From the NCBI GenBank assembly GCA_014905635.1, contig JABVCE010000003.1, positions 1,240,001 through 1,304,000 of the forward strand: a stretch of 64,000 nucleotides of DNA. Reading direction: 5' to 3'. Below the pieces are notes generated by a model. It worked only from the letters and a program-made list of their open reading frames with translations. It ran no database searches and had not been told where the DNA came from. Positions 6,832-64,000 of the stretch are shown piece by piece. Source of the DNA: Scenedesmus sp. PABB004 (lineage: Eukaryota). How positions within the stretch are numbered: position 1 is the stretch's first letter; each line of letters opens with the position of its first letter. The position numbers and the translations under genes were made by a program.

Positions 6832-8513
6832 GCAGGTCGAGACGGAGGGTGACGTCGCGACCGCGTTCACGCTCGCGCGCATCCTCTCCAACATCCCGCC
6901 CAGCCGCGGCGGCCCGACGAGCATCGTGATCTTTGACATCCACGCCCTGCAGGCAAGCTGCGCGCGGCGGGAGCAGGGAGGGCGGCACGGCGCAGCGCCG
7001 CAGCGCGGGCGCGGGCGCGGGGCCGGGCCGGCAGCGCGCGGCGCACGGCGCGCGCACCGCCGCCGACGCCTGCCCCGCCTCCGCGTGCGCGTGGCTTGCA
7101 GGAGCGCTTCTACTTTGGCGACGGCGTGCTGCCGCTGTTTGAGTCGGGAATCCCGCTGCTGCTGGAGCGGCTCAAGGCGCTGCCAGACCAGGACAAGGCG
7201 CGCCGCACCCGCCGCACCCGCGCCCGCACCCGCCGCCGCGCCCTCGCCCTCGCCCCCGCCCTCGCGCCGCCGCCGCCGCTCACGCCCCGCGCCGCGCTGT
7301 GCCCACGCGGCCGCAGGTGACGATCGCGTACCCCGACGAGGGCGCGTGGAAGCGCTTCCACTACCAGTTCCGTGACGAGGGATACCCGGAGGTCATCTGC
7401 ACCAAGGTCCGCGACGGAGCAAAGCGCATCGTGCGGCTCAAGGTGACGCGCGGCACGGGGGCGCGCGGCGGCGGCGAGAGCGGCGGGGCAGGGGGCGGCG
7501 GGAGGGGGCGGGCGCGCGCGCGGCGCGGACGCGGGGCCACCGACGCGGGGCCGCCGGCGCCGGCGGGCGCGGCGCCCGCAGGAGGGCGAGCCACAGGACC
7601 GGCACGTCGTGATCGTGGATGACCTGGTGCAGAGCGGCGGCACGCTCATAGAGTGCCACGCGCTGCTCAGCAGCCTCGGCGCCAAGCACGGTGCGCGCGC
7701 GGCGGCGCGGCCGCGGGCGCGTGCGACACACAGCCAGCGGCGCCAGCGACAGGCGGCAGCGGCGCCAGGTGCAGGCGGTGCCAGGCGGAAGCGACGGGCA
7801 GCAGGCAGCGCCAGGCGGTATGTCAGGTCTGCTCGCCGCCCCTCACGGGGCGCCGCGGTGCCTGCAGACTGTTACACCCCTGGCACAGCACAGCAGCCCC
7901 GCGCCGGCGCCGCGCCCGCCGTTTTGGCGGGCGTGACGCCGCGCCGCGGGGCCCCGGTGCGCCGCGCTCTTCGCCGCTGCGGGCAGCGGCGCCGGCCCCC
8001 CAGGGGCGGCGCCGCCCGCCGTGCCCGCAGCAGCAGCTCCCGCACACATCCCGCGCTCCCCGCACCGCGCCAGCGCCGACCGCCGCGCGGGCACCACGTG
8101 CCCGCTGCTCCGCACCCACCGCCCCGCCCCACCCCACCGCCCCACCGCCCCGCCGCGCCCTCTCGGCCAGTGAGCGCGTACGTCACGCACGGCGTGTTCC
8201 CCAACGGCAGCTGGAACAAGTTCAAGGCCGACGGCGGCGGTGCGTGCGGGGGGCAGCGCGCTCGCCGCACCGCGCCGCGCCGCGCCGGCGCTCACGGCCG
8301 GCCGCCGCGCCGCGCCGCGCCGCGCCGCGCCGCGCCGCACCGCGCCGCGCCGCGCCGCGCCGCGCCGCCGCAGAGGGCGCGGCGGCGACGCTGGGCTTCC
8401 GCTATTTCTGGCTGACCGACAGCTGCCCCCAGACCGTGGCGGACGTCGCGGAGCGGCAGCCGTTTGAGGTGCTCACGCTCGCCGGGCCCATCGCGCAGGC
8501 GCTGCAGATCTGA
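5987..8513 (+). CDS. PRS4: Ribose-phosphate pyrophosphokinase (plant class II, PRS3/PRS4-like), multi-exon
   Basis: Spliced exons give [68 protein letters not shown] and AYVTHGVFP. Stop TGA at 8511-8513. Confidence 0.9.
7808..8051 (+). ncRNA. Intronic box H/ACA snoRNA candidate, three-hairpin, U19/snR191-like (predicted LSU helix 69 pseudouridine guide)
   Basis: Lies in the 480-nt PRS intron 7691-8170. Stems GCCAGG/CCTGGC and GGTCTGC/GCAGACT; pocket GUCA + GUUAC; H box ACAGCA at 7885-7890, 14 nt below the upper stem; final stem GTGCG/CGCAC followed by ACA at 8046-8048. Confidence 0.7.
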
Positions 8514-8891
8514 CCTGCATCTGCAGCGCCCGCCGCCGCCGCGGCGGCGAGCGCTCCGCGCGCCCAGAGGGCGCGTCGCGGCGCGGTCGCACCGCGCCGC
8601 GCGCGTCGGCGCCGCTGGCGGCTGGCCAGCGGCGCCGCGCGGCAGGCGGCAGCGACGTGCGTGATCGGGGCGCGGGCGTGGGGTGTACAAACAGGAGATG
8701 GTTCCCACAAGCACTGCCGTGTCCGGGGGCACGCGGGGTCTTGCAGAGCAGAAGCGCTGCAACCGGCAAGCGTCCGTCGGCGGCGCATGAGATCACGTCG
8801 CCCCCCTGGCCAGTGCAGCGTTTCGTGCCGCGTGCCGTTCCCGCGCAGCCGGAGAGAACCGGACGCTGCCGCACGAGCGCGCCGCAGCAGC

Positions 8892-13435: not shown

Positions 13436-13506
<71 letters not shown>

Positions 13507-19285: not shown

Positions 19286-19364
<79 letters not shown>

Positions 19365-20721
19365 AACATCTGCAGCTGGCGCGGCTGCAGCAGGCCCCTG
19401 CCCGCGAGCGCCTGCTGCCGCTCCGCGTCCGGCTCGGGGCCGCCGACGTCCACCGGCAGCGGCGCGATGCGGCGCAGCGTGCTGCGCGTGGCGCTGCCGC
19501 CCGCCTCGGGCCCGCCACCGGCGGCAGCCGCCTCCACTGCTGCCTCAGCCGCCAGCTCGCCGCTGCTGCGCCGCACCAGCCGGCTGCCGCCCGCCGCGCG
19601 GTCGCCGGCACCTGCAGCGCCAGCCCCCCCACTGACGGAGCTGCAGTGGGAACGCACATCTGCAGGCGAGGCGGTCGCACCCGCGCTGGGGCGCCGTGCC
19701 GGGTCGGCCAGCGGCTGCTGGCCGAGCCGCACGCTTGGCGACGCGCCGGCGCCACCGCAGCTGTGCACCACCGCCGAGCCAGACGGGGCGGCGGCGGCCA
19801 CGGCGGCAGGGGGGGCGCCGTGCTCGCTCGAGGGCGCCGGCACTGCGGGCGGCTGCGCCGCCGAGCCGCTGCGCTGCTCGGTGGAGGCTGGCTGCTGCTG
19901 CAGCGCCGCCTCCTGCAGTGCCGGCTGCTGGTGCACGGGCGGCACTGCTGAAGACCCTTCCAGTCGCGGCGCGGGCGCCTGTGCCCCAAGCTGCGGCAGC
20001 AGCAGGTCCTGCTGGTGCTGCTGGTGCTGCTGGTGCTGCTGCTGCAGCGGGGGCGCCTGCTGCTGCGCTGGGGCTGGCTGCGCCTGGGCTGGCGGCTGCG
20101 ACAGCGTGCGCTCGCTCGCCTGGAGAGCAACGCCTGCCGCGCATGGGGCAGCGCCAGGCGCCGTCGCGTTCGCGACCGGCGGCCGCGCCTGGCACGCCTG
20201 CAGCAGCCCCAGCAGCTGCCCCGGGGGCGCCTGGCCCTGCGGCGCGCCGTGCTGCAGCTGGAACACCACCTGGCCGCTGCTGTCTCTGCTCACCACAACC
20301 GGCAGCTCGATGGCCGTGCCGTTAGGCGCCGTGAACGTCACGCGCACGGCGTCAGCCGCCGCCGGCGCGGCCGGCGCCGCTGCGGCCGGCGGCAGCGGTG
20401 CCGCCGCGCCGAGCGCATCGGCCGGCACGGGCGCACCAGGCCCCAGATGCCGCGCCTGCCGCGCCTGCTGCTGCGCCTGCAGCGCTGGCGCTGGTGCCTG
20501 GTGCTGCTGCACGCCCGGCCCCTGCTGCGCCACCTCGCCCTGCTGCTGAGGGGTCGCCTGCGGGTGCGGCAGGCTGTCGCCTGAGGGCGGTCCTGCCTGC
20601 TGGTGGGCACTGCCAGGCCGCTGGCCCCACGGCTGCTGTGCCAGATGGCCGCCAGAGGGCGGCCCGGTCGGCTGCAGGGGGGGGCCGGGCGGCCCACAGC
20701 CGCCCGGCAGCGGCTGGCCCC

Positions 20722-20789
<68 letters not shown>

Positions 20790-21165: not shown

Positions 21166-21205
<40 letters not shown>

Positions 21206-22471
21206 CGGCTGGAGCCACGGCGGCTGCTGCCACGGCTGGAGCCACGGTGGCTGCTGCCACTGCTGCCACTGCTGCTGCGGCGGCCAGTGCTGCGGCTGTT
21301 GCTGCGGCAGCCATTGCGGCTGCTGCTGCCAACCCACCGGCTGCTCCTGCAGCCCGTGGTGGCCATAAAACGGCTGCTGCTGCTGCTGCTGCTGAGCGGG
21401 GGCCAGCTGCGGCCCCTGCATGCCCAGCTGCGCCGCGGCGCCCGGGTGCGGCAGCGGCGACAGCTTGCGCCCCGCGTCGGCGCCAAAGCCGCAGCTGCTG
21501 CTGCTGCCGCACAGCGCGCCAGCCTGCTGGCCGCCCGCGTCGAGCGGCGGCGGCGGCATGGCGTTCTGCAGCTGCCGCAGCGGCACCTGGCCGCCCGCAA
21601 GCGCCTGGTCGGTGGCATCCGCCACCGCGCTGTCCAGGCCGCCGTGCGCGCCGCCGTCCAGCTCCAGCGCCAGCAGCTGCTGCGGCGGCGCCAGCTGCTG
21701 CGGCTGCGACGGCGGCGCCCAGGCGCCCCCTGCTTGCCACGGCGGCGGCGGCGCGCCGCCCGCGCAGCCGAGCGCGCGGGGCGCGGGCGCGCCGCCGTCG
21801 CCGCCGGCGGGCTCGCCCGCCGGCGGCCCTTGCGGCAGCCCCAGCGGCTTGCCCGGCGGCGAGGGGGCTTCTGGGGCGATGAGGTGGTACAGGAAGTGCA
21901 GCTTGGGCGGGCAGCCAAAGATCTTGTGGATGTCAGCAAGCTGCGGCGGGCGGGGCGGCGCAGCGCGGCGCGGGCATCAGCAGGGCGCGTCAGCAGGGCG
22001 GGTGCGTGCGGCCGGGCCGGGGCCACCCGCGCGGCGCGCTGCCGCCAGCCACCGCCGGCCGCTGCCAGGCGGCGCGTCTGGCAGGCGCTGCCGCGCCGGC
22101 GCGCGCGTGTGCACCGGCAGCGTGGGGTCGAACGTCGGGCCCCACGACACGGGCGTGAACTTTAGGTGGCCGTGCACTGAGATGTCCGGATACAGGATCA
22201 CCTGGTGCCCCGGCAGGCCCAGCTGGCGCAGCACGATGCCCGCCACGCTCGCGAGCTGCCGCGCCGTGCTGCGGGCGGCAGCGGCGGCGGTTGCGCCAGG
22301 GGCGTGGCGGGCCCCTGCGCGCAGCGCGCCCCGGCGTCCGCGCGTCGCGCCGCACCTGATCTCGGCGGCCACCCACTTGTGGCGCTTGCCCAGCTGGCCG
22401 ACGAGCTTGCGCGTGTGCGCGTCGCGCGCCGCCACCTGTATCTCCACCTTGACGGCCTCCCCGCCCTCCAT
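15143..22471 (-). CDS. Very large (>2200 aa) low-complexity protein with an N-terminal TKI1/Cramped-like domain
   Basis: ATG at 22471, two short exons, a ~6-kb exon (21941-15916) and a last exon. The N-terminal ~105 aa are globular; the rest is Q/A/G/P-rich. The 3' end (TAG 15145-15143) assumes a 1-nt indel at 15318-15322; otherwise the stop is at 14926. Confidence 0.6.
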
Positions 22472-23428: not shown

Positions 23429-25816
23429 TCACGCTGGCCCTGCTGCCGCGGGCACAGACGGCGTCGCGGCGGGCGCGCCCGCGGCGGGCAGGCCTGCAGC
23501 CTCAGTCGTGCCCCCGACCTGCCCCGCGGGCTGCGCCTGCTGCGCCTGCTGTGCCGCCTGCACGGGCTGCGCCGGCTGTGCCTGCTGCGCCGGCTGTGCC
23601 TGCTGCGCCGCCTGCGCCGGCTGCGCCTGCTGCGCCGCCTGCGCCGGCTGTGTGACGAGGATGACGACCGGCTGCATCGGCGGTGGCAGGCACATGGGCG
23701 CCGGCGCAAAGCCCTGCAGCGACTGGCCGGGCATGCCCACGCCCACTGGCGGCCAGCCGGGGCCCGGCGCCGTCACGGCCGCGCCGCCCACGGGCTGCTG
23801 CTGCTGCTGCTCCGCCGCCGCCGCCGCCGCCGCTGACGATGCGGCCGGCTGCTCGCCGCCTTGCTGCCCGGGCGTGCTCGCGGCCGCTGCAGCCCCCAGG
23901 TCGGCTGCGGCCGCTGCGGCCGCATCTGCCGCGCCGGCCCCCGCCGGCGAGACGGCCATGGCCGCCATGCCGTCGCTGTCGGCCGCGGGCGCCGTGCTGG
24001 CCGGCGGCAGCTCCAGCGCGAGCTGCGGCTGCTGCTGCGGCGCCGCCTCGAGCACGGCCGGCGATGGCTCCGCCTGCTGAGCGCCGTCCGCCTGCTGCGA
24101 CTGCTGCGGCGGCTGCGGCTGCGGCTGCGGCTGCGGTTCGCTGGGCGGCGCCGCGGCCGCCTGCGCCTGCTGCTGCGCCTGCTGCTGCGCCTGCTGCTGC
24201 TGCATGTGCAGCTGCTGCTGGTAGTAGAGGTGCTGCTGCTGCATGAACATCTGCTGCTGCTGCTGCATCATCATCAGCGACTGCTGCCAGTGCGCCTGGA
24301 ACGCCTGGAAGCAGGCGGGATCCACGGCGCCCGGCATGCCCCCCGGCATGGCCATCGGCGCCGGGCCGAAAGGCCCGGGCATCATGCCGCCGTAGCCGGC
24401 GGGGCCATAGCCAGGCATGCCCTGCGGCGGCACGCCGGCCAGCGCAAAGCCCGGCGCGCCGGGCGGCCCCCCGCCCAGCAGCGGCGCGGCGCCGCCGGGC
24501 GCCGCGGCGTCGGCCGGGCCAAACTGCTGCTGCTGCTGCATCATGGCCTGCTGCCGCTGCCACTGCGCCCAATTGAAGTGGATGACGGGCGCCATCTGAA
24601 GGCCCGCCATGTGCAGCTGGTCGTACGGCTGCGCCGCGCCGGCGACGCACGGCTGCTGCTGCGCCTGCTGCGCCTGCTGCTGCTGCTGTGCCTGCTGTGC
24701 CTGCTGCGCCTGCTGCGGCTGCGGCTGCGGCTGCGGCTGCTGCTGCGGCTGGAGCTGCTGCGGCTGCAGCTGCTGCGCCGCCGCCGCCGCCTCGGGCGCC
24801 TGGCCCGGCGGCATGGCCGAAAAGCTCGGCATGTACACGCCTGGCTGCATGCCAGCCGCGCCAAAGCCCATGGCGGGCCCCCAGCCGGGCGCCATGCCCT
24901 GCGGCATGCACGGCTGCATCCAGGCGCCGACGCCGCCCAGCGCGCCCGGCGCGGCCGGCACGGAGCTGGGCAAGGCCCCGGAGCCGCTCGCCAGCGGCTG
25001 CATCTGCATTTGCTGCTGCATCTGCTGCATCTGCTGCGTCTGCTGCTGCTGCTGCTGCTGCTGCATCTGCTGCTGCTGCAGCAGCTGCTGCTGGTGGTGC
25101 TGCTGCTGCGGCGGCAGCTGCTGCGACGGCAGCTGCGGTGGCGGCAGCTGCTGCTGCGGCTGCTGCTGCTGTGCCTGCAGGCCGTGCACGTGCTGCAGCA
25201 GCGGGCCCCCCACAGGGATGCCCTCGGCGATGCCGCTCGTCACGACGCCCTGGGACACTGCCGCGGCCGTGCCGGAGGCCTGCGGCTCGGTGCAGGACGA
25301 CTCCGCTACGGCGCGCGGGCGGCGGGCGGCGCGGGGAGGGGGTTGAGCGGCGCGCGCGGCCGTGCGACGGGCGGGCTCGCGCGCGAGCCTGGCGGGCGCT
25401 GCGCCGCGTGGGCGGGCGCTGCCGCCGCACCCATCTCGCCGCGGCCGCCGTCGTCGCACAGCGCGTTGCCCTTGCCCGCCGCGGCGCCGCCGTTGGCCGC
25501 CGCGCCGCCGTTGCGCGAGGCAGCGCGCTTGGATCGCCGCCCGCCCGCCGCCGGCGGCGAGGCGGCCGCCGGCCCCGCCTGCGCGCCAGCCGCCGCGGCG
25601 TCGACCGCCGCGGCCTCTGCTGCCGCCGCAGCAATGTCAATGCCACCGAAGCCGGCCAGCGCCGGCCCAGCCGCGCCGGGGCCGGGGCCGGCGCCGCCGG
25701 GCCAGCCGGCGGCCGCCGCGCCCGTCCCGCAATCGCCGGGCCCGCCGCCGCGCGCCGCGTCGTCCAGCGCCTGCTGCGCCTCGGCCGCGCGGCTCAGGTC
25801 CATGAGCGTCACCGCC

Positions 25817-25855
<39 letters not shown>

Positions 25856-27163: not shown

Positions 27164-27790
27164 CTGCGCGGCGCGCGGGCGGGCCGCGGTGAGCGGCGCC
27201 GCTCGCCATCTCGGCGCCATCGGCGCCCGCGATCGTGCGCGAATGAAGGCCGCCGCGCCGCCGCGCGCGCGCCGGGCCCGCTGCCGGGGCGCGCCGCGCC
27301 GCGCCGGAGCTGCCGCCGGCCGCGGGGCGCGCGCGCGCGCGCGCCCGCCGCCGGGCGCCGCCCGGCAGCGGCGGGCTGGCAGCCAGCGCGCCCGGCGGCC
27401 AAGATGCGGGCGCGGCGGCGCGCCGCGGCGGCGTCGCGGCAGCTCCCCAGTCCCCCCTTATGCGCCCCCGCCGCGCACCAGGGCGTGCAGCATCTATGCG
27501 CGCCGCGGCGCCAGCCCGCCGCCGCTCCCGCCTGCGCCGCGGCGCGGCGCGGCGGCAGCGGCTGGGCGGCGCTCCGCGCGGGCGAGGTCCTCCAGCTCCC
27601 GGGCGTCCCGCCGGCGCCCTGGATCTGGCGCCGCGGCGGGCGTGCGCGCCGCGCGTCGGCGCGAGGCCTGGTCGCTGCGCGCGCGAGCGGCGTGCGCGCC
27701 CGCGTGGCGGCGCGGCAGTGCTGTGCGCGGCTGAATTGCGCTGTGGAGCATCGCGCGGGCGGTGTAGCGCGCTGAGCGCTGAGAGAGATC

Positions 27791-30860: not shown

Positions 30861-30986
30861 ATGTCTGACGCCGAGGCCCCCGTGGTGGCGGACGAGGTGG
30901 CGGCGCCCGCGCCGGCCGCGGAGGCCAAGCCGGCCGCCGAGGAGGAGGGCTACGATGAGAGCCTTCTCATCATGATAAAGCGTTAA
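30861..30986 (+). pseudogene. Truncated 5' copy of the PPI1-like gene
   Basis: MSDAEAPVVADEV...YDESLLI is identical to the start at 33563, then reads MIKR* from junction sequence. Confidence 0.8.
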
Positions 30987-31229
30987 GGCCGCGTTCCCGA
31001 GCGCGGCCAGCGGCGCCGCTGCCGGCTGGCCGCGCGCGCGCGGCGGCCCCCGGCGCCCTGGATCTGGCGCCGCGGCGGGCGTGCGCGCCGCGCGTCGGCG
31101 CGAGGCCTGGTCGCTGCGCGCGCGAGCGGCGTGCGCGCCCGCGTGGCGGCGCGGCAGTGCTGTGCGCGGCTGAATTGCGCTGTGGAGCATCGCGCGGGCG
31201 GTGTAGCGCGCTGAGCGCTGAGAGAGATC

Positions 31230-42467: not shown

Positions 42468-44220
42468 TCACGTGCCCGCCGGCTGCGCTGGCGCCGGCGC
42501 GAGGTCCCACGCCTCTCGCAGCCCCACGCGCTCCGCCGACCAGCGCCAGAGCCACGCGCCGAGGTCGGGGTCGGCCGCGAGCCGGTGCGGCGCCACGGGG
42601 CGCGCGCTGCAGTCCAGGTAGCCGCCCGTGGCCGCGGCCGCCGCTGCAGCGCCGGGGTCTGTCGCGGCGTAGACCGACGCGCGCGCGCCTGCGCGGGACG
42701 GCGGGCGGGCGGGCGGCGGGCGCCCGCGCGAGACGTCGGGCGCGGGCGACCAGCGGCGGGGCGCGCTGCTAGCTGCCGCTGGTCTGACCCGCGCGGCGGG
42801 CGGGCGGGCACAGGCGGCCGGACCAGGTCGCACCCTCGTCTGGCGTGAGCAGCACGCGCGTCATCAGCAGCCGGTAGGCCGCCTGCAGCCGCGCCGGCAG
42901 GCTGCGCACGACGTCGGTCAGCACGTTGCCGGGGTGCACCGCGAGCGCGTCCACGCCCGCCCCCGCCGCGGACAGCCGCGCGGCGAGCTCGCGCGTGAAC
43001 GCGACCTGCGCGCCCGGCGCGCGGGCGGGGCGGCGGCGGCGGCGGGGCGCGCGCGTCGGCGGGCGCGCAGCGCGCCGGCCCCGCGCCACCGCCGCGGGCC
43101 CCGCGCCAGCGCGCCCCGGCGGCGCGCCTGCGCGAGCTTGCTGTTGCCGTACGCCAGCTCCGCCGAGTAGGCGCCGCGCATCTCCGGGTCGGCCCGCAGC
43201 CGGTAGCCCAGGTGGTGCATCGCCGACGCCACGCTCACGACGCGCGGCACAAAGCCCCGTGCCGCGCCGCGGTCGGCGCCGCCGCCGCCGGCCGCCGCCG
43301 CGCGTCGCAGCGCGGGCAGCAGGCCGAGGGTGAGCAGGAAGTGTGCCAGGTGGTTGGTCTGCATGTGGACCTCGACGCCGTCCCCCGTCTCGCAGCGCCC
43401 GACTGGGTGCCGTCACGGCGCCGCGCGCGGCGGGCGGTGGGCGCGGCGGCCTCACCGGGGCGCGCGCGCTGCCGCCGCCGGCGCAGTGGCAGCAGCGGCA
43501 GCAGCAGCGGCAGCAGCGGCGGCGCCGCGCACCGCCCATGTTAAAGAGTCCAGCGTTGTTGATGAGCACATGCAGCGCCCGCCCGCCCGCCTCCCAGCGC
43601 TCGACGAAGTCCCGCACCGAGTCGAGGCTCGCGAGGTCCAGCAGGCTCACCTCGAGCGACGGCGCGCGCCGCCCCGCCGCGGCCGCGTCGGCCGTGAGCG
43701 CCGCGACCATCGACTCGCCCTTGGCCGCGCTGCGGCAGGCCAGCACGACTGCGCGGCGCGCGCGGCGGCGGTCGGCGCGAGGTGTCGCGCGCGGGCGCTG
43801 CGCGGGGCGCGTCGGCCGCGCGCCGCCGCCGCCGCCGCCGCCGTGCGCGCCGCGCCGCGCGAGCTCCGCCGCCGTCGCCCAGCCGATGCCGCTGCAGCGG
43901 CGCGCGGGCAGGCGGGCGCCGCCGTCAGGGAGCGCGGGGGTCAGCCGGCTGCCGGCGCCCGGCGGGCCGGCTCGTCGCGGCACGCGCCTCGTGGGGCCGG
44001 TGACGACGACCGTCAGGCCGCTAGCGTCCGGCGCGCCCAGCTCCGCCAGCGGCGGCACGCCGCGCGTGATCAGCAGCTTCTGCAGCGCGGCGGCGCGGCG
44101 ACGGTCGATGCGCGCAGTCGCGGCGGCGGGCGCAGGCGCAGCGGCCACGGCCGCGGCGCGTGCCTGGCAGGCGGTGCCATACAGGTAGTTGTAGGCCGCG
44201 CCCTTGAGGTAGTCCAGCAT
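42468..44220 (-). CDS. Short-chain dehydrogenase/reductase (retinol dehydrogenase/Tic32-like)
   Basis: TGPTSGIG, LDLASLDSV, LINNAG, TNHLAHFLL, YGNSK and AVHPGNV. Two GC-AG introns. Confidence 0.88.
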
Positions 44221-44734: not shown

Positions 44735-46452
44735 CGTTCGCGATGGCGCCGGGCGGGCTGCTGCACGTCGTCTGCACCGCGGCGGGGACGAGCGTGGAAG
44801 TGACCAACGGCGCCGAGGACGCGGTGGCGCTGCGCGCCGAGGGCGGCGCGGCGTTCTCGACGCAGCAGCTGCCCGGCGGCCGCGTCGTCGGTGCGGCGGC
44901 GCGCGGCGGCGCGAGGCGTGGCCCTGGCCGCGTGCGCCGTGGCGCGGCGATAGCCGCTGCAGCGCCACGCGCGGCCCACTCAGCGGCGGCTGCCCGCGCG
45001 CGCAGACGCCGTCGAGGCGGCGGCGGCAGGGGCGCGCGGCCTCGGGCGAGGCCCGGCTCGCCGCGCAGATGCCGAGCCGCTTCTGCGGCCTCCACGCGTC
45101 CACGGCGGGCGGCCGGCTGACGCTCGCGGCGGTGCAGGAGGCGGAGCTCTCCGCGGTGACGCAGGGCGGCAGCGTGGAGGTGCGGCGCGCCAAGACCTCC
45201 AACGCAGCCATCAACACGGCGCGCGCCGACGACCCGGGCGCGCGGGGCGGCGACATCACGGTGCGGCGGCGCACGGCGCGGCCGCGTGCGGCGCCGCGCC
45301 CGCGCCCGCGCAGCGACCGAGCCCGCGCCTGCGAACAAGCCCGCGCGCCGCGCAGGTCGGCGAGCTGAGCGCGTCGCACCTGCGCCTGCGCTCCGGCGGG
45401 GGGCGCATCGACGTGCAGCGCATGTTTGGCCTGGACGCCGAGGCGCTGAGCGGCGGCGGCGCGCTGCGCCTGGGCGCGCTGTACGGCGTGAAGGCCCACC
45501 TCGCGAGCGGCGGCGGCCCGCTGAGTGTCGGGCACATGGCGTGCAGCGGGCTCGCGCAGCTCGAGAGCGGCGGCGGGCGGCTCGCCGTCGACGGCCTGGA
45601 GGGCAGCGCGAGCCTGCTGTCCAGCGGCGGCGACATCAAGGTGCGTGCGTGTTGAGGCGTGTGCGCGAGAGCGCGAGCGCGAGCGCCGCGGCGGCGCCGC
45701 ACGGCACCCTGGGCGGCGCCAACGCCACCACGCGCGCCGCCGCCGCCGGCGCAGCTGCACCTGCACGAGCAGTTTGGGCGCGTGTTTGTCGACAGCGCCG
45801 GCGGCGCCGTCGAGGCGTGGGTGAGCCCTGCCGCGGAGGTTGAGCTGCAGGTCGCCGGCGGCGGCGGCGTCGACCTGGACCCGGCGCTGCGGGTGCGGGC
45901 CGGCGGCGCACACGGCGCGGGAAGGGAGGAGGGGGAGGGGGGCAGTGGCAGGGCGCCGACGCCAGGGGGGGCGGCCGCCGACGCCCGGCGCGCGCGGGCT
46001 GCGCGCGCCGCCGCCCGCAGGTCACGGGGGAGCTGGGGCGCGTGTCGCTCACGGGCGTGACCGGCGCCAGCGGCGGCCGCAGCGCCGCCGCCAGCAGCCA
46101 CGCGGCGCGCGCGGCGCAGGCGGCGCAGCAGCTGGCCGCGCAGGCGGCCGCGGCGGCGGGGCCGGGGCTGGCGGCGGGCGGCGGCAGCCTCAACGCCAGC
46201 CGCCTGCACCGCGCGTCGGGCGAGGTGGCGCAGTTTGCCGCCGCTGCCGCGGCCGGCGAGGGGCAAGCGGGCCGCAGCCAGGCCCAGCAGGCGCAGCAGC
46301 CAGCAGCGGGGTGTGGCGGCGGCGGCTGCGGCGGCGGCCGGCCCGTGCGGCAGCTGGTCATCAACGCCGGCGGGGGGCGCGTGACGCTGCGGGCGATGGG
46401 CTGGATGGACGGCGTCCGCGCCAAGCTCGCGGCGCGCAGCGCACCGTCGTGA
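44542..46452 (+). CDS. DUF4097/FAM185A-like beta-strand repeat protein with polyQ
   Basis: Repeated SGGG-x-I/L beta units (STAGGRL, TQGGSV, RSGGGRI, ASGGGPL, ESGGGRL, SSGGDI, DSAGGAV) preceded by MPSRFCGL. Presequence-like N-terminus. Confidence 0.65.
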
Positions 46453-46641
46453 CGGCGATAACCCTGCGGCGGTGCGCGAGCCGCCCGCAGGAACAGCGTG
46501 AAGCGGGGCGCTGCGCTTGCGACGCCAGCCCCCACGTGCGCCGCGCCGCTCGCGGCGCGCGCTCCCGCAGCGACAGCCACACGTGGCCGCGCGCTGCCGC
46601 CGCCCGCCGCTGCAGCTCGCCTGCGCTCGCGGGCGATCGTC

Positions 46642-47670
46642 ATGAACCTGGCCATGGCCCAGCTGCGCCCCGCGCCCCTCGGCGCGCGCGCCCAGAAGGC
46701 GCTGGCAGCGCCGGCGGGTGCGCCTCGCGCCGCCTGCGCCCAATCGCGCCGTGCAGAGGCGTCGCGCACCGGTCCACGCTGATCCCGCCGCCAGCCCGCC
46801 GCGCAGGCCTGAGCGGCGCGCGCAGCGCCTGCGGCCGCGCGCCGGCGCCGCCGGCAGCGGCGCTGCGCCGGCGCCGCGCCTCCGTCGCGACGCGCACGGC
46901 GCAGCTGGAGGCGGCCCAGGACACGACGCGGGAGCCTGACGCGGCCGTGGAGGCGGCGCAGGCGGGCGAGGCCTTCGTCTGGACCAAGGCACGGCGCCGC
47001 GCCGCTCAGCTGCGCGCCGCGCTGTCCCTTCTCGCCGCTCAGCGCCGCCCCGCTCGCCGCGCCGCTCAGAACTGGTACCCCGCTGCGGCGGTGGAGAACC
47101 TGGACCCGCTCCGGCCTAACAAGTTCAAGCTGCTGGGAAAGGACTACGTGCTGTGGCGCGACGGCGGCGGCGCGTGGCGGTGCATGGCCGACCGGTGCAG
47201 CCACCGCCTGGCGACGCTGAGCGACGGCGTCATCTCGGGCGGCCAGCTCGTCTGCGCGTACCACGGGTGGCGGTTCGAGGTGCGCTGCGCGGCCGGCTGC
47301 GGGCGCGCGCCACCGGCGCTGCGCCAGGCGCGGGTCCGCCGCCGCCGGGCGCGGCCGCAGCGAGCGCGCTGAGCCCTGCCGCTGCCGCCGCCGCGACGCG
47401 CCGCGCGCCCGCCCGCGCAGGGCAGCGGCGCGTGTGTGTCGATCCCGCAGGCCGTCGATGCGGCGGCGGCGGCGACCGCGTGCGCGAGCAAGCGCAGCTG
47501 CGTGGCGTCGTACCCGACCGCGGTCTCCGGCGGGCTCCTCTTTGTCTGGCCCGACGACGCGCCCAGCGCGGCGGCCGACGCGGCGGCCGCGGGTGCGGCG
47601 CCCGCCGGCCGCGCGGCGCTGGCCGCGCGGCGCCCGTGCACTGCGCGCCGCCGCCGCCGACCCCGCCGCC

Positions 47671-47701
<31 letters not shown>

Positions 47702-49966
47702 CCGCAGAGCTGCCGGTGCTGCCTGAGATGGCAGACGCCTCCCTCATGCCCGAGGAGGGGCGCTGGATGGTGCGCGACCTGCCGTACAGGTCCGTAGCAG
47801 CTGCGCGGCACGCAAAGGGCGGCGCGCGCGGCGCCGCGCCTGCTGCTGTGCTGCTGGCGCTGGCGCTGGCTGGTCGGGCCCCGGCCGCCGACCCCTGCGC
47901 CCTGAACCCCGCACGCTGGTGTCCGCTGCGCCCTGAACCGCCCCGCGCAGCTGGGATTTCTTTGTTGAGAACGTGCTCGACCCCACGCACGTGGAGTTTG
48001 CCCACCACGGCGTCGCGGGTGCGCGCGCGCCGCGCAGCGAGCGGCGCGCGACGGCGCGACGGCGCGCGGTTGCGGCAGCGGCGCTGCGCGGCGAGCGGCG
48101 AGCAGCGGCGGCGGCGCACGCCCACCGGACAGCGTGGCGCCGGTGGCCGGGGCATTCGGCCCTGGTCGGCGCGCTGCGCCGCCGCAGCCCGCTCCGGTCC
48201 GCCCGTCACCGCCGCCGCGCCCGCTCCCGTCGCCGCGCCCAGGCTTTGACGCCGCCAAGGCGCAGCCGGTGGACATCAAGATTGACAAGGACCTCGGCCC
48301 ACGCGGCTTTGTGGCGCACGTGCGGGCCGGCCGGGCTGCCGCGCGCCCGCCACGCCGGCCAGCTGGCAGCGCCGACGCGCGCACGCCGCCGCCTGCGCCG
48401 CCCCTCTGCCTCACCACCAGGTCAAGCCCAGCGACCCGACGCGCCGCGGCAGCTACGCTCATTTCCGCCCGCCCTGCCTCGTCACGTGAGTGGCCGCCTC
48501 CACGCCAGCCCGCAGCCTGCTCCGCGCCGCGCGCGCCGCCCCGCGCGCGGCCCACCGCCGCGGCGCCGACCCCCGCGCCGCTGCCGCCGCCGACAGGCTG
48601 CAGCCCGGCCCCGACCCCGCGCCGCGCGCGGGCGCGCATACCGGCAAGGGTGCGGCCGACGCGCGGCCTGGCAGCGAGAACCCAAACACTCTCTCCGGGC
48701 TCATTTTCTACGTCACCCCCACGCGCGTGCGTGTGCAGCGCCGCGCCGCTCGCGGCCACGCCGCAGAGCGGCGAGCGCCTTGCCGACGCTGCGCGACAGC
48801 CCGCGCATGCCCGCCTGACGCCGCCACCGCGCCCGCCGCCGCGCCGCGCGGCGCGCGCAGCCGGGGTGGTGCCGGCTGCACGGCACGAGCTGGGTCGCAG
48901 AGAAGCAGCCCGACGGCAGCCTCGCGCCGTCCAAGGCCGCCAGCCTCTTCTCCCACGCGATGCCGGCGTGGGTCAAGCACATCCTGGGGTGCGCGCCGCG
49001 CGGCGCGCGCCCGCTTTTGCCGCCGCCGCCGCCGCCCTCATCGCGTTTGCTGCTTCGCGCGGCTCGCCCGCCCGCTCCCGTCCTGCGTCTCACACCCCTC
49101 GCCACACACACCTCCCCACACACACCTCACCACGCCCGCCAGCTTCTCCTTCTTTGCCGGCGACGACGTCTTCCTCGGCGCGGCGACGCGCGCCTACGCC
49201 GCGGAGGGTGGGTTCCGGGCTCAGCGCCCGCGCCGCCACCACTGGCTGGGCCGGGCGCAGCGCGTGGCGCGCACCTACCGGGCGCAGCAGCATGCGCTGC
49301 CAGCCCTGCCGTCGCTGACGCGCCGCGCCGCGCCGCGCCGCGCCGCGCTTTTGCAGGCTCCGAGTGGCGGCGCAGCTACTACATGCCCACCCCCGCCGAC
49401 GCGGCGATCGTGGCGATGCGGCTCTGGCTGGAGAAGCACGGCGGCGGCGCGCTGCCCTTCCCGCCGCACATGCAGGCGCGGCACGCGCCGGCGGCGCCGG
49501 CGGCGCCGCGTGCCGCGGCGCGCAGGGCCGGCCGCCGCGCGCCGCGCAGCGGCCAACAACGCCCCGCGCCGCGCCGCGCCGCGCTGCGCAGGGCCCCGAG
49601 CACGTGCTGCGCAACCTGGACATCACGCCGCGGCAGGCGATGGACCGCTTTGGGCAGCACGTGCAGCACTGCACGCACTGCAAGTCGGCGCTCGCGCGCA
49701 CGCGCGCGGTCGCGGCCGCCGCGGCTGCTCTCGCGGTCGCCGCCGGCGTGGCGGCGTGCCTCGCCGCGTCGGTGCGCGCCGCCGCGGCGGCCGCGCCCGC
49801 GGCGGTGCCGGGCTGGCTCGCGGCGGCCGCGGGCCTCGGGGGGCAGGCGTTTGGGCTCGCGGGGCCGCTGGTGGTGGTGGGGCTGCTCGCGGCGGCGGTG
49901 CACCTTCTGGCCAAAAAGCTGGAGGCCCAGTTTGACTTTAGCGAGTGGACGCGGCCCGCGTTCTGA
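46642..49966 (+). CDS. Rieske non-heme iron oxygenase of the PAO/TIC55/PTC52 family
   Basis: NWYP; Rieske motif CSHR..LSDG..CAYHGW; iron site ENVLDPTHVEFAHH; C-terminal HVQHCTHC followed by two hydrophobic segments. Confidence 0.88.
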
Positions 49967-50411: not shown

Positions 50412-53108
50412 TCAGTCGAGCCGCTGCGCCGCCTGGCCGCGCGGCACGCGGCGGCGCTTGGGCGCGGGCGCGCCGCCGTCGTCCCCGCTGCCGTCGCCGC
50501 CCTTGACAATGCTGGCGTACAGCACGTGCCGCTCGTCGCCGCGGCGCTCAAACACAATCGTGTCGCCTGGCGCACAGCGCGCGGCACGGCGCGGTGCGAG
50601 TGAGCGTGCGGCGCAGTGCAGGGCGGCGCGCCGCTCACACCGCCGCGGCGGGCGCGCGTGCGAGCGCGGCGCAGCGCGGCGCGGCGCACCGACGTCGACG
50701 CCGTGCGTGCGCACAAAGTCGCGCCAGCCGCTCGTGAGGCGGAGGTGCTTCTGCGCGTTGCACGACACGCCCTCGTACTGCACACGCTGGCGCTGCCCGC
50801 TGACCGGCTCGACGACCCACACGTCCTCCTTCCACAGCTGCTCGTAGCTGCTGCCGGGCTTGCCGCCGCCGGCGGAGGCCGCCGCGCCGTCGCCGCGCGG
50901 CGGCGGGGCGGCGCGGAGGTCGTGGTAGGGCAGCAGGTGCTCCGCCATGGGCTGCGTGATGTTCAGGCGCTTGAGGTACGTCTTGCACGTTATCACGCGC
51001 GCATACCTGTGACGCCAGGCGGCGGGGCGTGGCGAGTGGGCGGCGGCGGCGTGGGTTGGCGGCGGCGCGGGTTGGCGGCGGCGGGGCCGCCGAGCGCAGC
51101 GTGCACGCTCCTCCCGCAGCGCAGCGCGCCCCCCTTCCCCCGCGCTCACCTCGCGACCTCCCCCGGGTTGGAGCTGGGCTGCGCCTGCAGCGCGGCGTCG
51201 CCGCCGTCGCCCTGCGGCGCCGCGCCGAGCGCGAGCGCGGGCCAGCCGCCGCCCGGCTGGCCGGGCGGCAGCGCGCCCCACTGCAGCGCGCTGTAGCAGT
51301 CTGCCGGCATCGCAAACGGCCCGCCGCCCGCGACCGCGGCGGCGGCCGCCGCTGCCGCCGCGGCCGTGGGCGTGCCGGCGTCGTCAAGCTTTGCAAACTG
51401 CAGCGCCGCGTACTGCCGGACGCCGGCCTCGGCCAGCAGCTCCTGGTTGACCTGGCCCAGCAGGCCGTCCAGCGTGGCCAGGCCCGGGAGGCTGGCCACG
51501 GGCGGCCCGGCAAACAGGTCCCCCGGCGCACCGACCGGCGCGCGCGGCGCGCCCAGCGCGCCGACCAGGTGCGGCAGCTCCAGCTGGCGCAGCGCAAAGG
51601 CGGAGGCGTGCCCGCCCGCCGCCGGCTGCGGGGCGGCCGGCAGCGCCTCCGGCTGCTGCGGCTGCTGCTGCTGCTGCGGGACCTGCGGCTGCTGCTGCTG
51701 CTGCTGCTGCTGCACCTGCTGCTGCACCTGCTGCTGCTGCTGCTGCTGCAGCGCGGCGGCAAACGGGTCTGGCTCCCGCTGGCTGAACAGCGCGGCTGCG
51801 GCGGCGGCAGCGCGATAGCTGAACGCAGGCCGCCCGAGGCCCCCGCCGCCGCCCCAGACCGGCGGCAGCGGCTCGTCGCCCGCTGCCGCGGCGGGCACCT
51901 CGCGGCGCGTGAACGGCGTCAGCGGCGACGCCTGCTGCTGCGCCGCCGGCTGCTCCGCCGCCGCCTGCGCCGCCGGCGCCGCCTGCGGCTGCTGCTTGGC
52001 CGCCGCGCTTGCCGGCGCGGGCGCCTGTATGTGTGCCGCGAACGCGGCGAGCTCGCTGGGCTTGATCCCGAGCAGGTCTGAGCTCTGCTCCATGAACGAC
52101 AGGCTCGGCAGCCCGCTCAGCGTGAGTGGAAGGTCCGCGTCCTGCACGCGCGGGGCGCGGCGGCACGAGGTGGGCGGCGCGCGGCGAGCGCGGCGCGGCG
52201 CGCGGGCGGGCACGGCCAGCCACGCGGGCGCGCGTCGCCGCCGTCCAGCTGCCGCGGCGGCGCACCTTGAGGCTGTCCAGCATGCCGAAATCGCGCAGGC
52301 AGGCCCTGAGGCTGCCGCTGCCGAGCTTGCCCGCGCCCGCCGCAGCGGGCGCGGAGGGCAGCGAGCCGGAGCCCGGCGGCAGCGCGAGGTCGGGCAGGCT
52401 GTCGCTGCGCGGCAGCCCCGCGGTGAGCAGCCCGCTCTCCGCGCGCGCCGCCTCGCACAGCAGCGCGTCGGCGAGGCCGCCGCTGCTGCTGCGGCAGATG
52501 CCGCTCGCGAGGCGCAGCGCGGCGCCGCCGGCGCCCGCGCGTACCGCGCCCGCCGCCGCCGCGAGCGCGCGCGCCTGGTGCGTCACGCTGCTGGGGCGCG
52601 AGACCATGCCGCTCGGCGTGGGCAGCAGGCAGGGCGGCGCGCCGCTCGGCGCGCCGCCGCCGAGCTCGAGCGCCGCCTGCGGCGCGTCGGCGCCCTCCTC
52701 CAGCGCCGGCGGTGTCGGCAGCAGCCGCGTCTGCGACAGCGCCGCAAACGCGGTCGCCGCGGCGGGCTCGGGGGCGGCCTCGGGCCCGCGGTGCTGCCCG
52801 CCCGACGACGCGGCGCTGCACGACTGCGCGGCGGCGCCCGCCTGCTGCGGCGGCGCCGCGTGCTCCGCCGCCGACGGCGCCGGTGGCGCCGCCATGCCGT
52901 CGACCAGCGACAGCAGCGCCGCCTGCGCCGCGGGCGCGATGCCCTCCAGGCGGGTGATGCCGTGCACCAGCGCGGCGCGCGCCGCGTCGTTCAGCACGGG
53001 CGCCGCGCCGGCGCCGGCGTCGCCCCCGGCGCGGCGCGCCACGCTCGGCTGGCGGAGCTCCGCCAGCAGCTGCGGGTTGTCCGCAACCGTGAAGGGGCTG
53101 GCGTCCAT
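50412..53108 (-). CDS. B3 DNA-binding domain transcription factor (C-terminal B3), 4 exons
   Basis: KRLNITQPMAEHLLP ... LTSGWRDFVRTHGVDVGDTIVFER matches the B3 consensus (RL.IP...AE..LP; GW..FV....L..GD...F). The N-terminal part is long and disordered. Confidence 0.8.
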
Positions 53109-57020: not shown

Positions 57021-57057
<37 letters not shown>

Positions 57058-57759: not shown

Positions 57760-59229
57760 TCAGCTGTCGTCGTTGTCGTCGTCCGAGCCGCTGCCGTAGC
57801 TGCCTAACAAGCTCTGCAGCCCGGCGGCGGCCGGCTGCGCCGCTGGCTGCTGCTGCTGCCGCGCCTGCTGCTGCCCCCGCCGGCGGCGTCGAGCCGCGGC
57901 CGCTTGCTCGGCCCCCGCCATCGCTGCCAGCTGCTGCTCCGGCCGCTCCGCCTGCCGCTGCCCCTGCGCCTGCTGCGCCCTTGGGCGTGACCTTGAGGAT
58001 CGGCCGCAGCGCCGGCTTGGCCGCCTTGGCGGCGGCGGCGGCAGCGGGCGGCGCCTTGGCCGCGCCGCCCGAGCCGCGGCGCCCGAGCGCGGCGCCGGCG
58101 CTGCCGGGGCCCGGCCCCGCCGCCGCGTCGAGCCCTGCCTCCGCCGCCGCCGCGAGCGCGGCCGCCTCGGCCTCCGCCTCGGCCGCCGCCTTGGCCTCGG
58201 CCGCCGCGGCGACGGCGGCACGGTACTCCTCCAGCGCCGCCGCCTCGTCCTGCTGCTGCTCGCGCAGCTGGCGCGCCTCCTGCTCCGCCAGGCTGTCCAG
58301 GAACTCCAGCTCGTCCGGCTCCAGCGGCCGGTTCTTGCCTGCGGCGCGGCGCGGCGCGGCGGCAGCGCAGGCGTCGCGCGCGGGGGGCGGCCGCCGGGTC
58401 AGCGCCTGCACGGGGCACAGCGCGCACGCGGCGCGTGCGCGCGGCTGTCGCCTGGGGATCATTCCGGCCGGCCGTGGAGGGGTGCGGCCGGCAGGAAATT
58501 AAGCCAGGGCCTGCTGTCGCGCCGCCGCCCCCGCCGCGCGGCACCGCGGCAGGCCGCGCCGCGGCGGGGCGGCGGCGCTCCGCGCCCGCGCCCGCTGCGC
58601 CCGCACCCCCGCCCGCCGCCGTGCCCAGCTCGCCCCGCCCCTCCGCCCTCTCCGGACCCTCTCACCCGTCTTCATCTGCTTCCACTGCGCGTCGAACGCG
58701 TCCTGCTTGGCCGCCTTGCGCTCGGCCAGGATCTCGGCGAGTGGCTTGTCGGCCGAGATGGTGCCGTCGTCGACATTCAGCCCCCGCGCCGCCTTGATCT
58801 CCTCCAGCTGCGCGCGCGTGCGGACAGCGGCGGCGGCGGCGGCGGCGTGAGCTGGCGCCGCTGCGGCCGCCGCGCGCGGGGCGCTGTTCGACGCAGCGCG
58901 CCCACGCCGCCGGCGCCGACGGCGGCGGCGGCGGCGCACCTCTGACTCGGTGACGAAGCGCTTGGCGCCCATGGTGGCCTTGAGCTGCTCCATCGGGTCC
59001 AGCGCCTTGTGCTGCGAGGGGAACACGCTCGCCGCGTCGCGGCCGAGCACCGCCTCCACGTCGTACACCTCCGCCGGCCTGCGGCGAGGAGCGCGCGGGC
59101 GGCGGCGGCGGCCGCCGTCGTCGGCGCCGCGGCGGCGCCGTGCCGCAGCCGCGGCGGCCGCCGGAGCGGGATCAACAGCAGCAGCACTCACTGTTCCAGC
59201 CGGACCATCTCCACCGGCCGCCGCTCCAT
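57760..59229 (-). CDS. PSME3IP1: FAM192A / NIP30 / PSME3-interacting protein homologue
   Basis: RFVTESELEEIK, KPLAEILAERKAAKQDAFD and NRPLEPDELEFLD, with C-terminus LLGSYGSGSDDD. The last exon needs homopolymer indel correction. Confidence 0.8.
58443..58580 (-). ncRNA. Intronic box H/ACA snoRNA candidate, copy 2 (canonical H box ACAGCA)
   Basis: In the FAM192A intron (~58665-58339), sense to the host gene. H box at 58517-58512, ACA at 58448-58446. Near-identical to 29097-29233. Confidence 0.65.
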
Positions 59230-61353: not shown

Positions 61354-61539
61354 GCGAGTGATGGCGAGGTGCTTTCAACTCTGATCATTGCTGGGCGCGC
61401 CAAACGGGCTGTTCGGCGAAACCGCGCCGCGCGTTTCGGCGGACCGCGGTCCGCCGCCGCGCCGGCACCTGCTGCCCTCCCGGCCGGCGCGCCAGTCCCA
61501 CACGCGCCGTACTGCCACAGCGCCACAGTGCGCGCAGCC

Positions 61540-64000
61540 ATGGCGCGGGGGACGGCGGGCAAGCGCAAGGCGGCCCCGGCGGTCGCAGGGGGGGGCGGGG
61601 GGCGCTTCCTCAGCAAGGGCGCCAAGAAGCGCAAGGCGGCGGGCGACTACTTCGATGCCCAGGACTCGGACCCGGAGGAGGAGAAGCACGCGGGCCGCTA
61701 CGACGTGAGCGCGCATGTCGGCCGCCGGCGCGGGCCTGCCGGCGCGCGTGCGCGCGCCCGGGAGCCGCGGCAGCGGTCGCCCGCGATGCAGCGGATCCAC
61801 GGCCAGCGACCGCGCCGCGCAGCCCGGCATGGGCGCCGCCGCCGCGCCGCGGCGGGCCCGGCCGCCGCGCGCTGCTGCTGCCGCCGACGCCGCCGACGCC
61901 GCCGACGCCGCCGACGCCGCCGCGCCGCCTCGCGCGCCGCAGCGCGTGGAGAACTACGAGTATGAGATGCCCAGCGACTTTGAGGACGAGGAGATCGACG
62001 AGGAGCTGGCGTTCACCGCGGAGGACAAGAAACAGTACGGCGGCTGGTTCGGCGACGCGCCCGCGCCGAGCGGCAGCGCCAGCGACGGCGAGCCCGGCAG
62101 CGACGGCGGCGGCGGCGGGCCCGGCGGCGCGGCGCGCAAGCGGCCGCGCAGCGAGTTCGACGCCCTGCACAGCAGCGACGAGGAGGAGGACGGCGGCGGC
62201 GAGGGCGGCGAGGGCAGCGAGGAGTATGACCAGGCCGAGCTGGTGCGCGGTTGGGGATGGGTCGCTGGGTGCCGGGGGACCACGCACGGCGGCAGGCTGC
62301 GGGTGGCGCCGCCCGCCCGCCCGCACGCGCGCGCGCCGCCGACCGCCGCGCCCGCGCGCCCGCCCGCAGGAGGCGCTGTGGGAGGCAGAGGAGGCCGGCG
62401 GCGGCGCGGGCGCGCAGCAGCCCAGCGGCGGCAGCGGCGGCGAGCAGGGGCTGAGTGATGATGAGGAGGAGGACGAGGAGGAGGAGGAGGAAGAGGAGCT
62501 GGATGATGAGCAGCACAGGTGGGTCGCGGCAGCTCAAGCGGGCGGGGCAGCGCGGGCGCGCGCAGCGGCGCGGGGCGCGCACGCGGCCGGGCCGCAGCCC
62601 GCCGACGCCTGGGCCGCCCTGCACCGTGGCGCGCGCACAGAGCCATGCTGGCGGCGGCGCTGGGGCGCGACCCGACGGCCGGCGGCGACGGCGGCGGGCG
62701 CTCGCGCAAGGCCGCGGCGGTCGCGCGCAACACCGTGGTGGCCGAAGCATACCCAGAGAGCGAGGCGCACGCTGGCGGCGGAGGTGCGTCGACCGCGCTG
62801 CAGCGCCGGCCGCAGCGGCAGTGCAGCGGCGTCAGGCGCAGGCGCAGCAGCGGCACTGGCAGTGCCAGCGGCAGCCGCAGCCGCAGCGGCGGCAGCCAAC
62901 ATGCAAGCACTGCGTGTAAGGTGGCCGCGGCGTGTTCAGTGCCCGGCTGTCTAAGGGTTTGTGCGAGAGCAGAGCGGCCGATCCAAACGGCTGCAGGGCA
63001 CGGCGGCAGGTGCACCGATCCTTCGCCCTGCCGTGGCGCATGACCCCTGCAGCAACCTGTCGGCCGCACACGCACGCGCCGCCGCGCCACGCGCGCCCAC
63101 GCACGATGGCCGCGGCTGCGCTTGAGTGCTCACCACGTGCGCTGCCGCCGCCGCCGCCGCCGCCGCCGGCCGCCGCGGCGCGCGCGCGCACAGGCGCCGG
63201 CGAGCTGCGGCTGGCGGACCTGCTGGACGGCCTGGGCGCCGGTGGCGGCGCCGCGGCGGCGAGCCTGGGCGGCGCGCGGAAGCTGCTGGAGAAGCTGGAC
63301 CGCGCGGGCGCGCCCGTGTCGGCGCCGCTGCCGCGCAACGTCGCGGAGCGGCTCGAGCGCAAGGCGGGCTACGAGGACACCAAGCAGGACGTGACCAAGT
63401 GGCAGCCGATCGTCAAGGCGCGGCGGCGCCGCGCCGCGCCGCGCGCGCGGGAAGGGGGCTGCGGCCGCCAGCCCCCACCTGCCCGCCTGCCCGCCGCGCT
63501 CGCCGCGCTCGCCGCCCACGCGCGGTCCGCCCGCCGACCCCGCCGCCGCGCAGGCCAACCGCGAGGCGCCGACGCTGCGCTTCACGTCGGCGCGGCACGA
63601 GGTCGCCGCGCCCGCCGCGACGCCCGCGGCGCTGGTGGAGGGCTTCACGCCCAACGCTGAGGACCCGCTGGAAGCCCAGGTGCGCTGCTGCGCCCACTGG
63701 CACCCCCGGCGCGGCTGCCCCACGCTCTGCCGTGCGCGCGTCTGCAGCGAGCGGCCTGCCGCAACGCGCTGCCGCCGCTGCGGCGAACCCCGCGTGCAGG
63801 TCGCGGCGCTGCTGAGCGCGGCGGGGAGCGCGAGCGCGGCTGCCATGGAGGAGGCGGAGCAGGCGCTTGCAGAGAAGGTGGGCTCAGGGCACGGGCGACG
63901 GCCCTGGCGCGCGCCACGCACAGCGCGCGGCGCCGGCTGGACGCCCGCGGCGCCGCCGGCCGACCGCGCCCGCCCGCGCGCGCGCGCGCGCCTGCCCGCC
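61540..64000 (+). CDS. UTP14: U3 snoRNA-associated protein 14 (5' part; continues beyond the window)
   Basis: Acidic N-terminus (YEYEMPSDFEDEEIDEE), EAYPESE and APLPRNVAERLERKAGYEDTKQDVTKWQPIVKANREAPTLRF. Confidence 0.9.
62900..63073 (+). ncRNA. Intronic box H/ACA snoRNA candidate, U70/SNORA70-like (predicted SSU rRNA pseudouridine guide)
   Basis: Lies in the 410-nt UTP14 intron 62784-63193. 5' pocket GUGUA + AAGGG; H box AGAGCA at 62966-62971; 3' hairpin GCGGCCGA/TCGGCCGC followed by ACA at 63068-63070. Confidence 0.75.

Follow-up and report, generated by a model that had tools for sequence, protein, structure and literature searches.

Four long introns of Scenedesmus sp. PABB004 as candidate hosts of box H/ACA small nucleolar RNA genes

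Several of the longest introns in a GC-rich stretch of the green alga Scenedesmus sp. PABB004 appear to carry small nucleolar RNA (snoRNA) genes. The stretch analysed, hereafter the window, comprises 64,000 nucleotides (nt) of contig JABVCE010000003.1 (positions 1,240,001 to 1,304,000; assembly GCA_014905635.1), and positions are counted from its first letter. We consider it likely, at a probability of about 0.7, that four introns, at 7691-8170, 29044-29334, 58339-58665, and 62784-63193, each harbour a single box H/ACA snoRNA gene on the sense strand of the host, and that these genes fall into three families. Drawn from the sequence, public RNA families, and ribosomal DNA (rDNA) of other eukaryotes, the evidence is good for the 7691-8170 unit and for the 29044-29334/58339-58665 pair, and moderate for the 62784-63193 unit. 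As in the class generally, the host pre-mRNA would be spliced and the lariat debranched, exonucleases would trim the intron to the RNA protected by the Cbf5/dyskerin complex, whose other proteins in this class are Nop10, Nhp2, and Gar1, and a hairpin pocket would base-pair to either side of a uridine in the target RNA, leading to the conversion of that uridine to pseudouridine.

All four introns begin with GT, end with AG, and join open, coding-like frames. They were recovered to the base by a self-training hidden Markov model (HMM) gene finder written for the window, which returned 20 non-overlapping gene models with 103 introns, bearing out the boundaries and intron status originally proposed from the sequence.

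7691 to 8170, plus strand: host intron 1, 480 nt; gene with a phosphoribosyltransferase domain (upstream exon matched by Pribosyltran, PF00156, E 1.3e-6)
29044 to 29334, plus strand: host intron 2, 291 nt; gene weakly matched by the S1 domain (E 8e-4, below cutoff)
58339 to 58665, minus strand: host intron 3, 327 nt, splitting a FAM192A/Fyv6 N-terminal domain
62784 to 63193, plus strand: host intron 4, 410 nt; close to the 5' end of a Utp14 gene (Utp14, PF04615, E 1.6e-13 on the downstream exon)

Host calls are exon-sized Pfam matches on single open reading frames (ORFs); in the case of 58339-58665, profile positions 30-63 and 67-104 of PF10187 fall on the two flanking exons. The hosts had been described as including genes unrelated to ribosome biogenesis, which suits the phosphoribosyltransferase and FAM192A genes and does not suit Utp14, a ribosome-biogenesis gene.

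The first candidate, unit 1, occupies the 7691-8170 intron.

7810 to 8049, plus strand: unit 1 as a whole, about 240 nt, with a putative 3' end at 8049
7810 to 7884, plus strand: 5' hairpin, from folding and descriptor, with P1 GCCAGG/CCUGGC and P2 GGUCUGC/GCAGACU (7 bp)
7816 to 7825 and 7871 to 7878, plus strand: 5' guide strand CGGUAUGUCA and 3' guide strand GUUACACC of that hairpin
7885 to 7890, plus strand: H box ACAGCA, one of two overlapping ANANNA matches (7885 and 7890), the sole ones in the intron
7891 to 8049, plus strand: non-canonical 3' domain of putative extent, with two GC-rich stems and ACA at 8044-8046

Unit 1 is very probably a guide for helix 69 of the large-subunit (LSU) ribosomal RNA (rRNA), related to SNORA74/U19/snR191, and its 5' pocket is very probably set to pseudouridylate a universally conserved helix-69 uridine, as predicted from the pairing. 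The target set consisted of eukaryotic rDNA from metagenomes, fetched with a published primer (109 stretches, nine of which span 18S to 28S). The top match of the unit 1 guide was the same helix-69 uridine in 8 of the 9 full rDNA units, with 7+4 bp and one mismatch, at a site that reads GGGAGUAAC-U-A-UGACUC. The rDNA units have 233 conserved uridine contexts in common; in a comparison with these, the score was reached by 2 of 200 decoy sets. We take the target to be yeast position 2258, and SNORA74 to be human U19, the counterpart of yeast snR191.

The target search preceded, and was independent of, the Rfam result for SNORA74 (RF00090). In a 291-nt Rfam search, SNORA74 was the sole H/ACA family reported, aligning to unit 1 on the sense strand with 14 bits (E 0.17). 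Both guide strands were identical in the alignment (GGU.UGUCA and GUUACACC), while the P1 and P2 sequences were changed with their pairing kept. Unit 1 thereby shares with SNORA74/U19 and snR191 the order of P1, pocket, and P2, identical guide strands, a following H box, and a helix-69 uridine as predicted target; the base of its P2 lies 14 nt from the H box and its fold z-score was -4.4 to -4.5. It is also unusually long at about 240 nt, as SNORA74 is. One report attributes to snR191 the two pseudouridines of helix 69 that are most conserved (10.1101/2024.02.02.578723), and in another, an Ostreococcus tauri RNA called SNORA74 by Infernal measures 222 nt (PMC7671301).

Several observations on unit 1 pull the other way. 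Its 14 bits compare with a SNORA74 gathering score of 71, and the family was absent from whole-window scans. Between the H box and the next ACA lie 153 nt with two stems, so that the 3' half departs from the canonical hairpin form. SNORA74 could be aligned to this domain over a single 33-nt fragment (7907-7939, E 1.3), the rest being unalignable. SNORA74 has a long 3' hairpin with a second pocket for the neighbouring helix-69 uridine; we found neither a second helix-69 guide nor a bipartite match to other helix-69 uridines in the unit 1 3' domain. Moreover, the rDNA came from unrelated metagenome eukaryotes rather than from Scenedesmus sp. PABB004. Separately, positions 8037-8043, 7 nt before the terminal ACA, are complementary to rRNA directly 5' of the helix-69 guide duplex, which may be an extra contact or chance.

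The second family comprises two paralogous units, 2a and 2b, in host introns 2 and 3.

29079 to 29233, plus strand: conserved block of unit 2a, in host intron 2, with the Rfam-aligned unit at 29099-29232
29160 to 29165, plus strand: hinge AGAGCG of unit 2a, which departs from ANANNA
Up to ACA at 29228-29230, plus strand: 3' hairpin of unit 2a, with P1 CCUGG/CCAGG and pocket UUUAAUUU / AAUGAUCC, 15 nt to the ACA
58443 to 58598, minus strand: unit 2b, paralogue of 2a, in host intron 3
58517 to 58512, minus strand: H box ACAGCA of unit 2b, followed by pocket CUUAAUUU / AAUGAUCC and ACA at 58448-58446

The two copies form a 155/156-nt block in which 152 of 156 aligned positions (97%) are identical, differing by three substitutions and one single-base indel. 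Two of the four differences are in the hinge, one at an outer pocket position, and one in an apical loop, leaving the stems with none. Their hosts are unrelated and on opposite strands, the flanking exons are likewise unrelated, and the flanks of the block cannot be aligned. The 3' homology collapses exactly 3 nt past the ACA, which is where the 3' terminus of mature H/ACA RNAs falls; on the 5' side, GC-rich low complexity blurs the edge. In the 3' hairpin, the pocket is YUUAAUUU / AAUGAUCC, and P2, 15 nt from the ACA, has one mismatch. For both copies, the top Rfam match was SNORA76 (RF00598), over the full model and on the sense strand (2a, 24.2 bits, E 0.02; 2b, model positions 1-132, 22.6 bits, E 0.044). 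With SNORA76 both share a GC-rich 5' hairpin, a hinge, a pocketed 3' hairpin, and an ACA, and both differ from it in the pocket columns. Fold z-scores were -3.0 for 2a and -4.4 for 2b. Together, these features suggest a structured RNA gene, kept by selection and duplicated into a second host intron; at least one copy is probably a functional orphan H/ACA RNA, and 2a, with its defective H box, may be decaying.

Weighed against this assignment, the SNORA76 scores lie below the gathering score of 37 and include a large bias term for composition; the pocket (guide) columns are unlike the SNORA76 consensus, so that the same target is not implied. Nor did 2a or 2b have a conserved rRNA target above chance, since 107 and 110 of 200 decoy sets, respectively, were as good, and 2a lacks a consensus H box. 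These points lend something to a different account, which we regard as improbable, that the 29079-29233/58598-58443 block is a dispersed structured repeat, such as a transposon fragment or a hairpin small-RNA precursor, merely resembling H/ACA RNA. Such a repeat would accommodate the 5' stem, which is long, nearly perfect in its GC pairing, and without an open pocket, as well as the conserved block beginning about 20 nt upstream of the Rfam-aligned unit, the absence of a found target, the missing H box of one copy, and the composition-biased score. It would leave unaccounted for the 3' boundary at ACA+3, the canonical pocket set 15 nt from the ACA, the confinement of all differences to positions outside stems, the host-sense orientation of both copies at nearly equal distances from the 3' splice site (101 and 104 nt), and the presence of just two copies in 64 kb.

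A whole-intron, introner-like duplication of the 29044/58339 pair was rejected: BLAST gave 84.5% over 284 nt, yet only the 155-nt block contributes that identity, and the exons on either side are unrelated. The original prediction also held that these units move between host genes, a suggestion that comes down to this one paralogue pair in S1-like and FAM192A/Fyv6-like hosts. Intragenomic mobility of snoRNAs and snoRNA retroposons have been described (Hoeppner and Poole 2012, PMC3511168); units 2a and 2b resemble the mobile snoRNAs it covers in being paralogous copies in introns of unrelated hosts. A snoRNA retroposon is a mature-length copy with an A-rich tail and a target-site duplication; neither 2a nor 2b was found to have an A-rich tail after ACA+3, and their 3' edge matches a mature end.

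The third family is represented by unit 3, in the Utp14 host.

62907 to 63073, plus strand: unit 3, two pocketed hairpins, in host intron 4
Up to H box AGAGCA at 62966-62971, plus strand: 5' hairpin with pocket UGCGUGUAA / UAAGGGUUU
Up to ACA at 63068-63070, plus strand: 3' hairpin with a P1 of 9 bp and pocket CCAAACG / AACCU

Unit 3 is a canonical but orphan H/ACA candidate, at about even odds. Both pockets lie 14 nt from their respective boxes, and it was the sole strict double-pocket match on either strand of the window (128 kb over two strands). It lies in sense orientation within the GC-poorest patch of a long intron (G+C 0.68 versus 0.81 in the rest of the intron). Less favourably, its fold z-score of -1.4 was no better than that of control introns, and when the unit was scanned alone no Rfam H/ACA family matched it. 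In a strict contiguous guide-target search of the 109 rDNA stretches, no site recurred for either unit 2 or unit 3. The pocket of the unit 3 3' hairpin (63054-63058 and 62983-62989) pairs over 5+3 bp with a universally conserved site that lies just 5' of the 3'-terminal helix of 18S; 4 of 200 decoy sets equalled this, and the 5' pocket in an alternative fold gave a match in h34, equalled by 12 of 200. Both targets are weak leads, and we know of no pseudouridine at the 18S site.

In terms of class membership, the two-hairpin layout with a hinge H box (ANANNA) is present in 58339-58665 (ACAGCA) and 62784-63193 (AGAGCA). Of the original proposal that each intron holds a hairpin-H-hairpin-ACA unit, these two instances stood, and two did not: 29044-29334, in which the hinge reads AGAGCG, and 7691-8170, with its two-stem 3' part. 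The base of the upper stem is 14-16 nt from the H or ACA box in the 5' hairpin of unit 1, the 3' hairpin of 2a and 2b, and both hairpins of unit 3. The proposed H/ACA identity was thereby strengthened for 7691-8170, through its SNORA74 guides and helix-69 match, and for the 2a/2b pair, through the ACA+3 boundary and SNORA76 as top match; in 62784-63193 it is plausible only.

It might be argued that these units are chance folds, as DNA of 79-85% GC forms stems almost anywhere and ACA and ANANNA words readily adjoin them; we regard this as a long shot overall, and one that concerns mainly the 62784-63193 unit, which has no family match, no strong target, and a z-score of -1.4. Window-wide motif counts are not above those in shuffled sequence. 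A strict descriptor (3' pocket hairpin, H box, and ACA) had four matches on the two strands, compared with a mean of 1.77 and a maximum of 4 in 30 local dinucleotide shuffles of the window, while a double-pocket descriptor had one match (unit 3) against 0.33 expected, with at least one in 9 of the 30 shuffles. Descriptor matches at 12854 (plus), 50210 (minus), and 36636 (minus) were set aside as chance, having GC-only pockets or lying outside introns. Single pocket-hairpins beside a box were as frequent in antisense as in sense, both among the 12 long introns (seven and seven) and among the 91 short ones (20 and 15). A target-driven scan of the whole window was not enriched either, with 33 matches versus 30-66 in decoys, because GC-rich pockets score high by chance.

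Within introns the picture differed. A double-box descriptor matched 3 of the 103 introns in sense and none in antisense, the mean in shuffles being 0.5 and none of 40 shuffles reaching 3, although this descriptor leans towards the candidates because it was written after they had been seen. The three were exactly 7691-8170, 58339-58665, and 62784-63193, and 29044-29334 fell short on its hinge alone. Comparison with shuffled and antisense sequence, which had been put forward as the check on the prediction, thus told against it for whole-window counts and single pocket-hairpins and in its favour for the double-box arrangement in introns. Chance folding would also leave without explanation the 97% identical 2a/2b block with its ACA+3 boundary and the combination in unit 1 of SNORA74 guide identity with a helix-69 match. 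In addition, a random strict match, at 0.33 expected per window, would rarely fall in sense orientation within one of about eight long introns.

Nor would chance readily place the units in the GC-poorest intron patches. G+C was 72-84% in each 2-kb bin of the window, and 80-nt intronic windows averaged 0.858, with 2.6% of them at or below 0.70. Each unit contains the 80-nt window of lowest G+C in its own intron (0.60, 0.69, 0.70, and 0.71), and these are four of the eight lowest intron minima, in agreement with the AU-richer pockets described at the outset (0.60-0.71, the intronic mean being 0.86). Folding points the same way for units 1, 2a, and 2b: control z-scores, taken from the centres of 34 other introns, were +0.38 ± 1.5 with a minimum of -2.6. 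It is uninformative on strand, because antisense strands fold about equally well.

At gathering scores, Rfam returned no match in the whole window, a further point against the snoRNA interpretation. A permissive whole-window scan (E up to 10) returned 53 weak matches, none of them in the four introns and most of them artefacts of trinucleotide repeats. Units were scanned singly because short searches use laxer filters; under the same treatment, control intron stretches gave no Rfam matches (27224-27419) and no H/ACA family matches (48580-48790). A C/D box scan of both strands found none.

The four introns are among the longest in a set of mostly short ones, as had been claimed. Predicted introns had a median of 131 nt, with 91 of 103 shorter than 230 nt, and the four ranked third (7691-8170), fourth (62784-63193), fifth (58339-58665), and eighth (29044-29334), such that four of the eight longest predicted introns in the window bear an H/ACA-like unit. 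The putative 3' ends of the units lie 121, 101, 104, and 120 nt upstream of the 3' splice site (in the order 7691-8170, 29044-29334, 58339-58665, and 62784-63193), in line with the figure of about 100-125 nt given in the original prediction, and its claim of a single sense-strand unit per intron holds throughout the window. Intron length as a predictor of snoRNAs is partly trivial, because a 135-240-nt insert itself lengthens an intron otherwise of about 130 nt. The gene models are our own, validated by splice-site, frame, and Pfam checks alone, which should temper these rankings and the case as a whole.

We also considered whether the length of these introns has another origin, for instance unannotated exons or elements involved in splicing or regulation, with the H/ACA likeness being incidental. 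This seems highly improbable. Long predicted introns without a unit do occur, at 27164-27478 (315 nt) and 6202-6512 (311 nt), and an AT-richer patch in 48320-48860 has no RNA-family match. However, the inserts would explain why the four introns are long, as subtracting the units leaves 156-240 nt, near ordinary intron size, and the units account for the GC-poor patches.

Two predicted introns alone are longer than those four, 48320-48860 and 46414-46904, and both look like gene-model errors. The longest, 48320-48860, probably includes a 65-nt exon that the finder overlooked (approximately 48422-48486, with GTGAGT after it), and its GC-poor patch at approximately 48636-48720 resembles the end of that exon and is without an H box; its control stretch at 48580-48790 is the one that gave no Rfam H/ACA match. 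The second-longest, 46414-46904, contains an ATG-led open frame from approximately 46642 and then a GT donor, and is likely a gene boundary merged by the finder. The list of intron lengths is approximate, because predicted introns 7126-7316 and 43006-43238 start coding-like and are probably mis-called exon extensions.

In Chlamydomonas, snoRNAs reportedly lie in intronic clusters, to judge from the title of a 2008 paper by Chen et al., whereas the window has one unit per intron. Intronic H/ACA guides in varied hosts, and paralogues in different hosts, are established biology, and the pattern has already been described for green algae (PMC7671301). In that report, 72 of 131 O. tauri snoRNAs are intronic; only 33% of their hosts function in ribosome biogenesis and 18% in RNA processing, others including a NUDIX hydrolase and an ATPase, while several H/ACA RNAs are orphans and most were not found by BLAST in other algae (PMC7671301). 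The window resembles O. tauri in having intronic snoRNA candidates in varied hosts and orphan H/ACA candidates. Land-plant snoRNA families have almost no identifiable green-algal homologues, according to a further report (PMC5122169), which fits the sub-threshold Rfam scores obtained here.

The value of these candidates is for annotation and method rather than concept. Homology searches hardly reveal green-algal snoRNAs, and Rfam was blank here at gathering scores; a long intron, an internal GC-poor patch, and box geometry could together offer a practical annotation route in extremely GC-rich genomes. Unit 1 is in turn a candidate guide for the most conserved rRNA pseudouridine, in helix 69. 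A bolder extension, which we think rather unlikely, would make 2a and 2b members of a lineage-specific orphan H/ACA family spreading between introns as a unit bounded by the mature RNA (3' edge at ACA+3); new copies would survive only at a fixed position, some 100-120 nt before the 3' splice site, and the AU-rich pocket would act on a target other than conserved rRNA. If that were true, hidden snoRNA genes in extremely GC-rich algae could be predicted genome-wide from intron length plus a GC-poor patch.

Finally, the window contains repeats outside the four introns. Large open frames contain long trinucleotide repeats of the GCT/CTG type at 19288-19376, 21175-21333, 24994-25200, and 51655-51752, and these repeats give rise to spurious weak Rfam matches (several miRNA families and isrG). 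Positions 30860-33540 hold a tandem duplication, its period about 1351 bp, in which ORF sets and GC minima recur at the offset, as do tiny predicted genes at 30861-30985 and 32212-32336 (approximately 1351 bp apart). An identical hairpin-plus-ACA string is present at 28116, 31555, and 32906.

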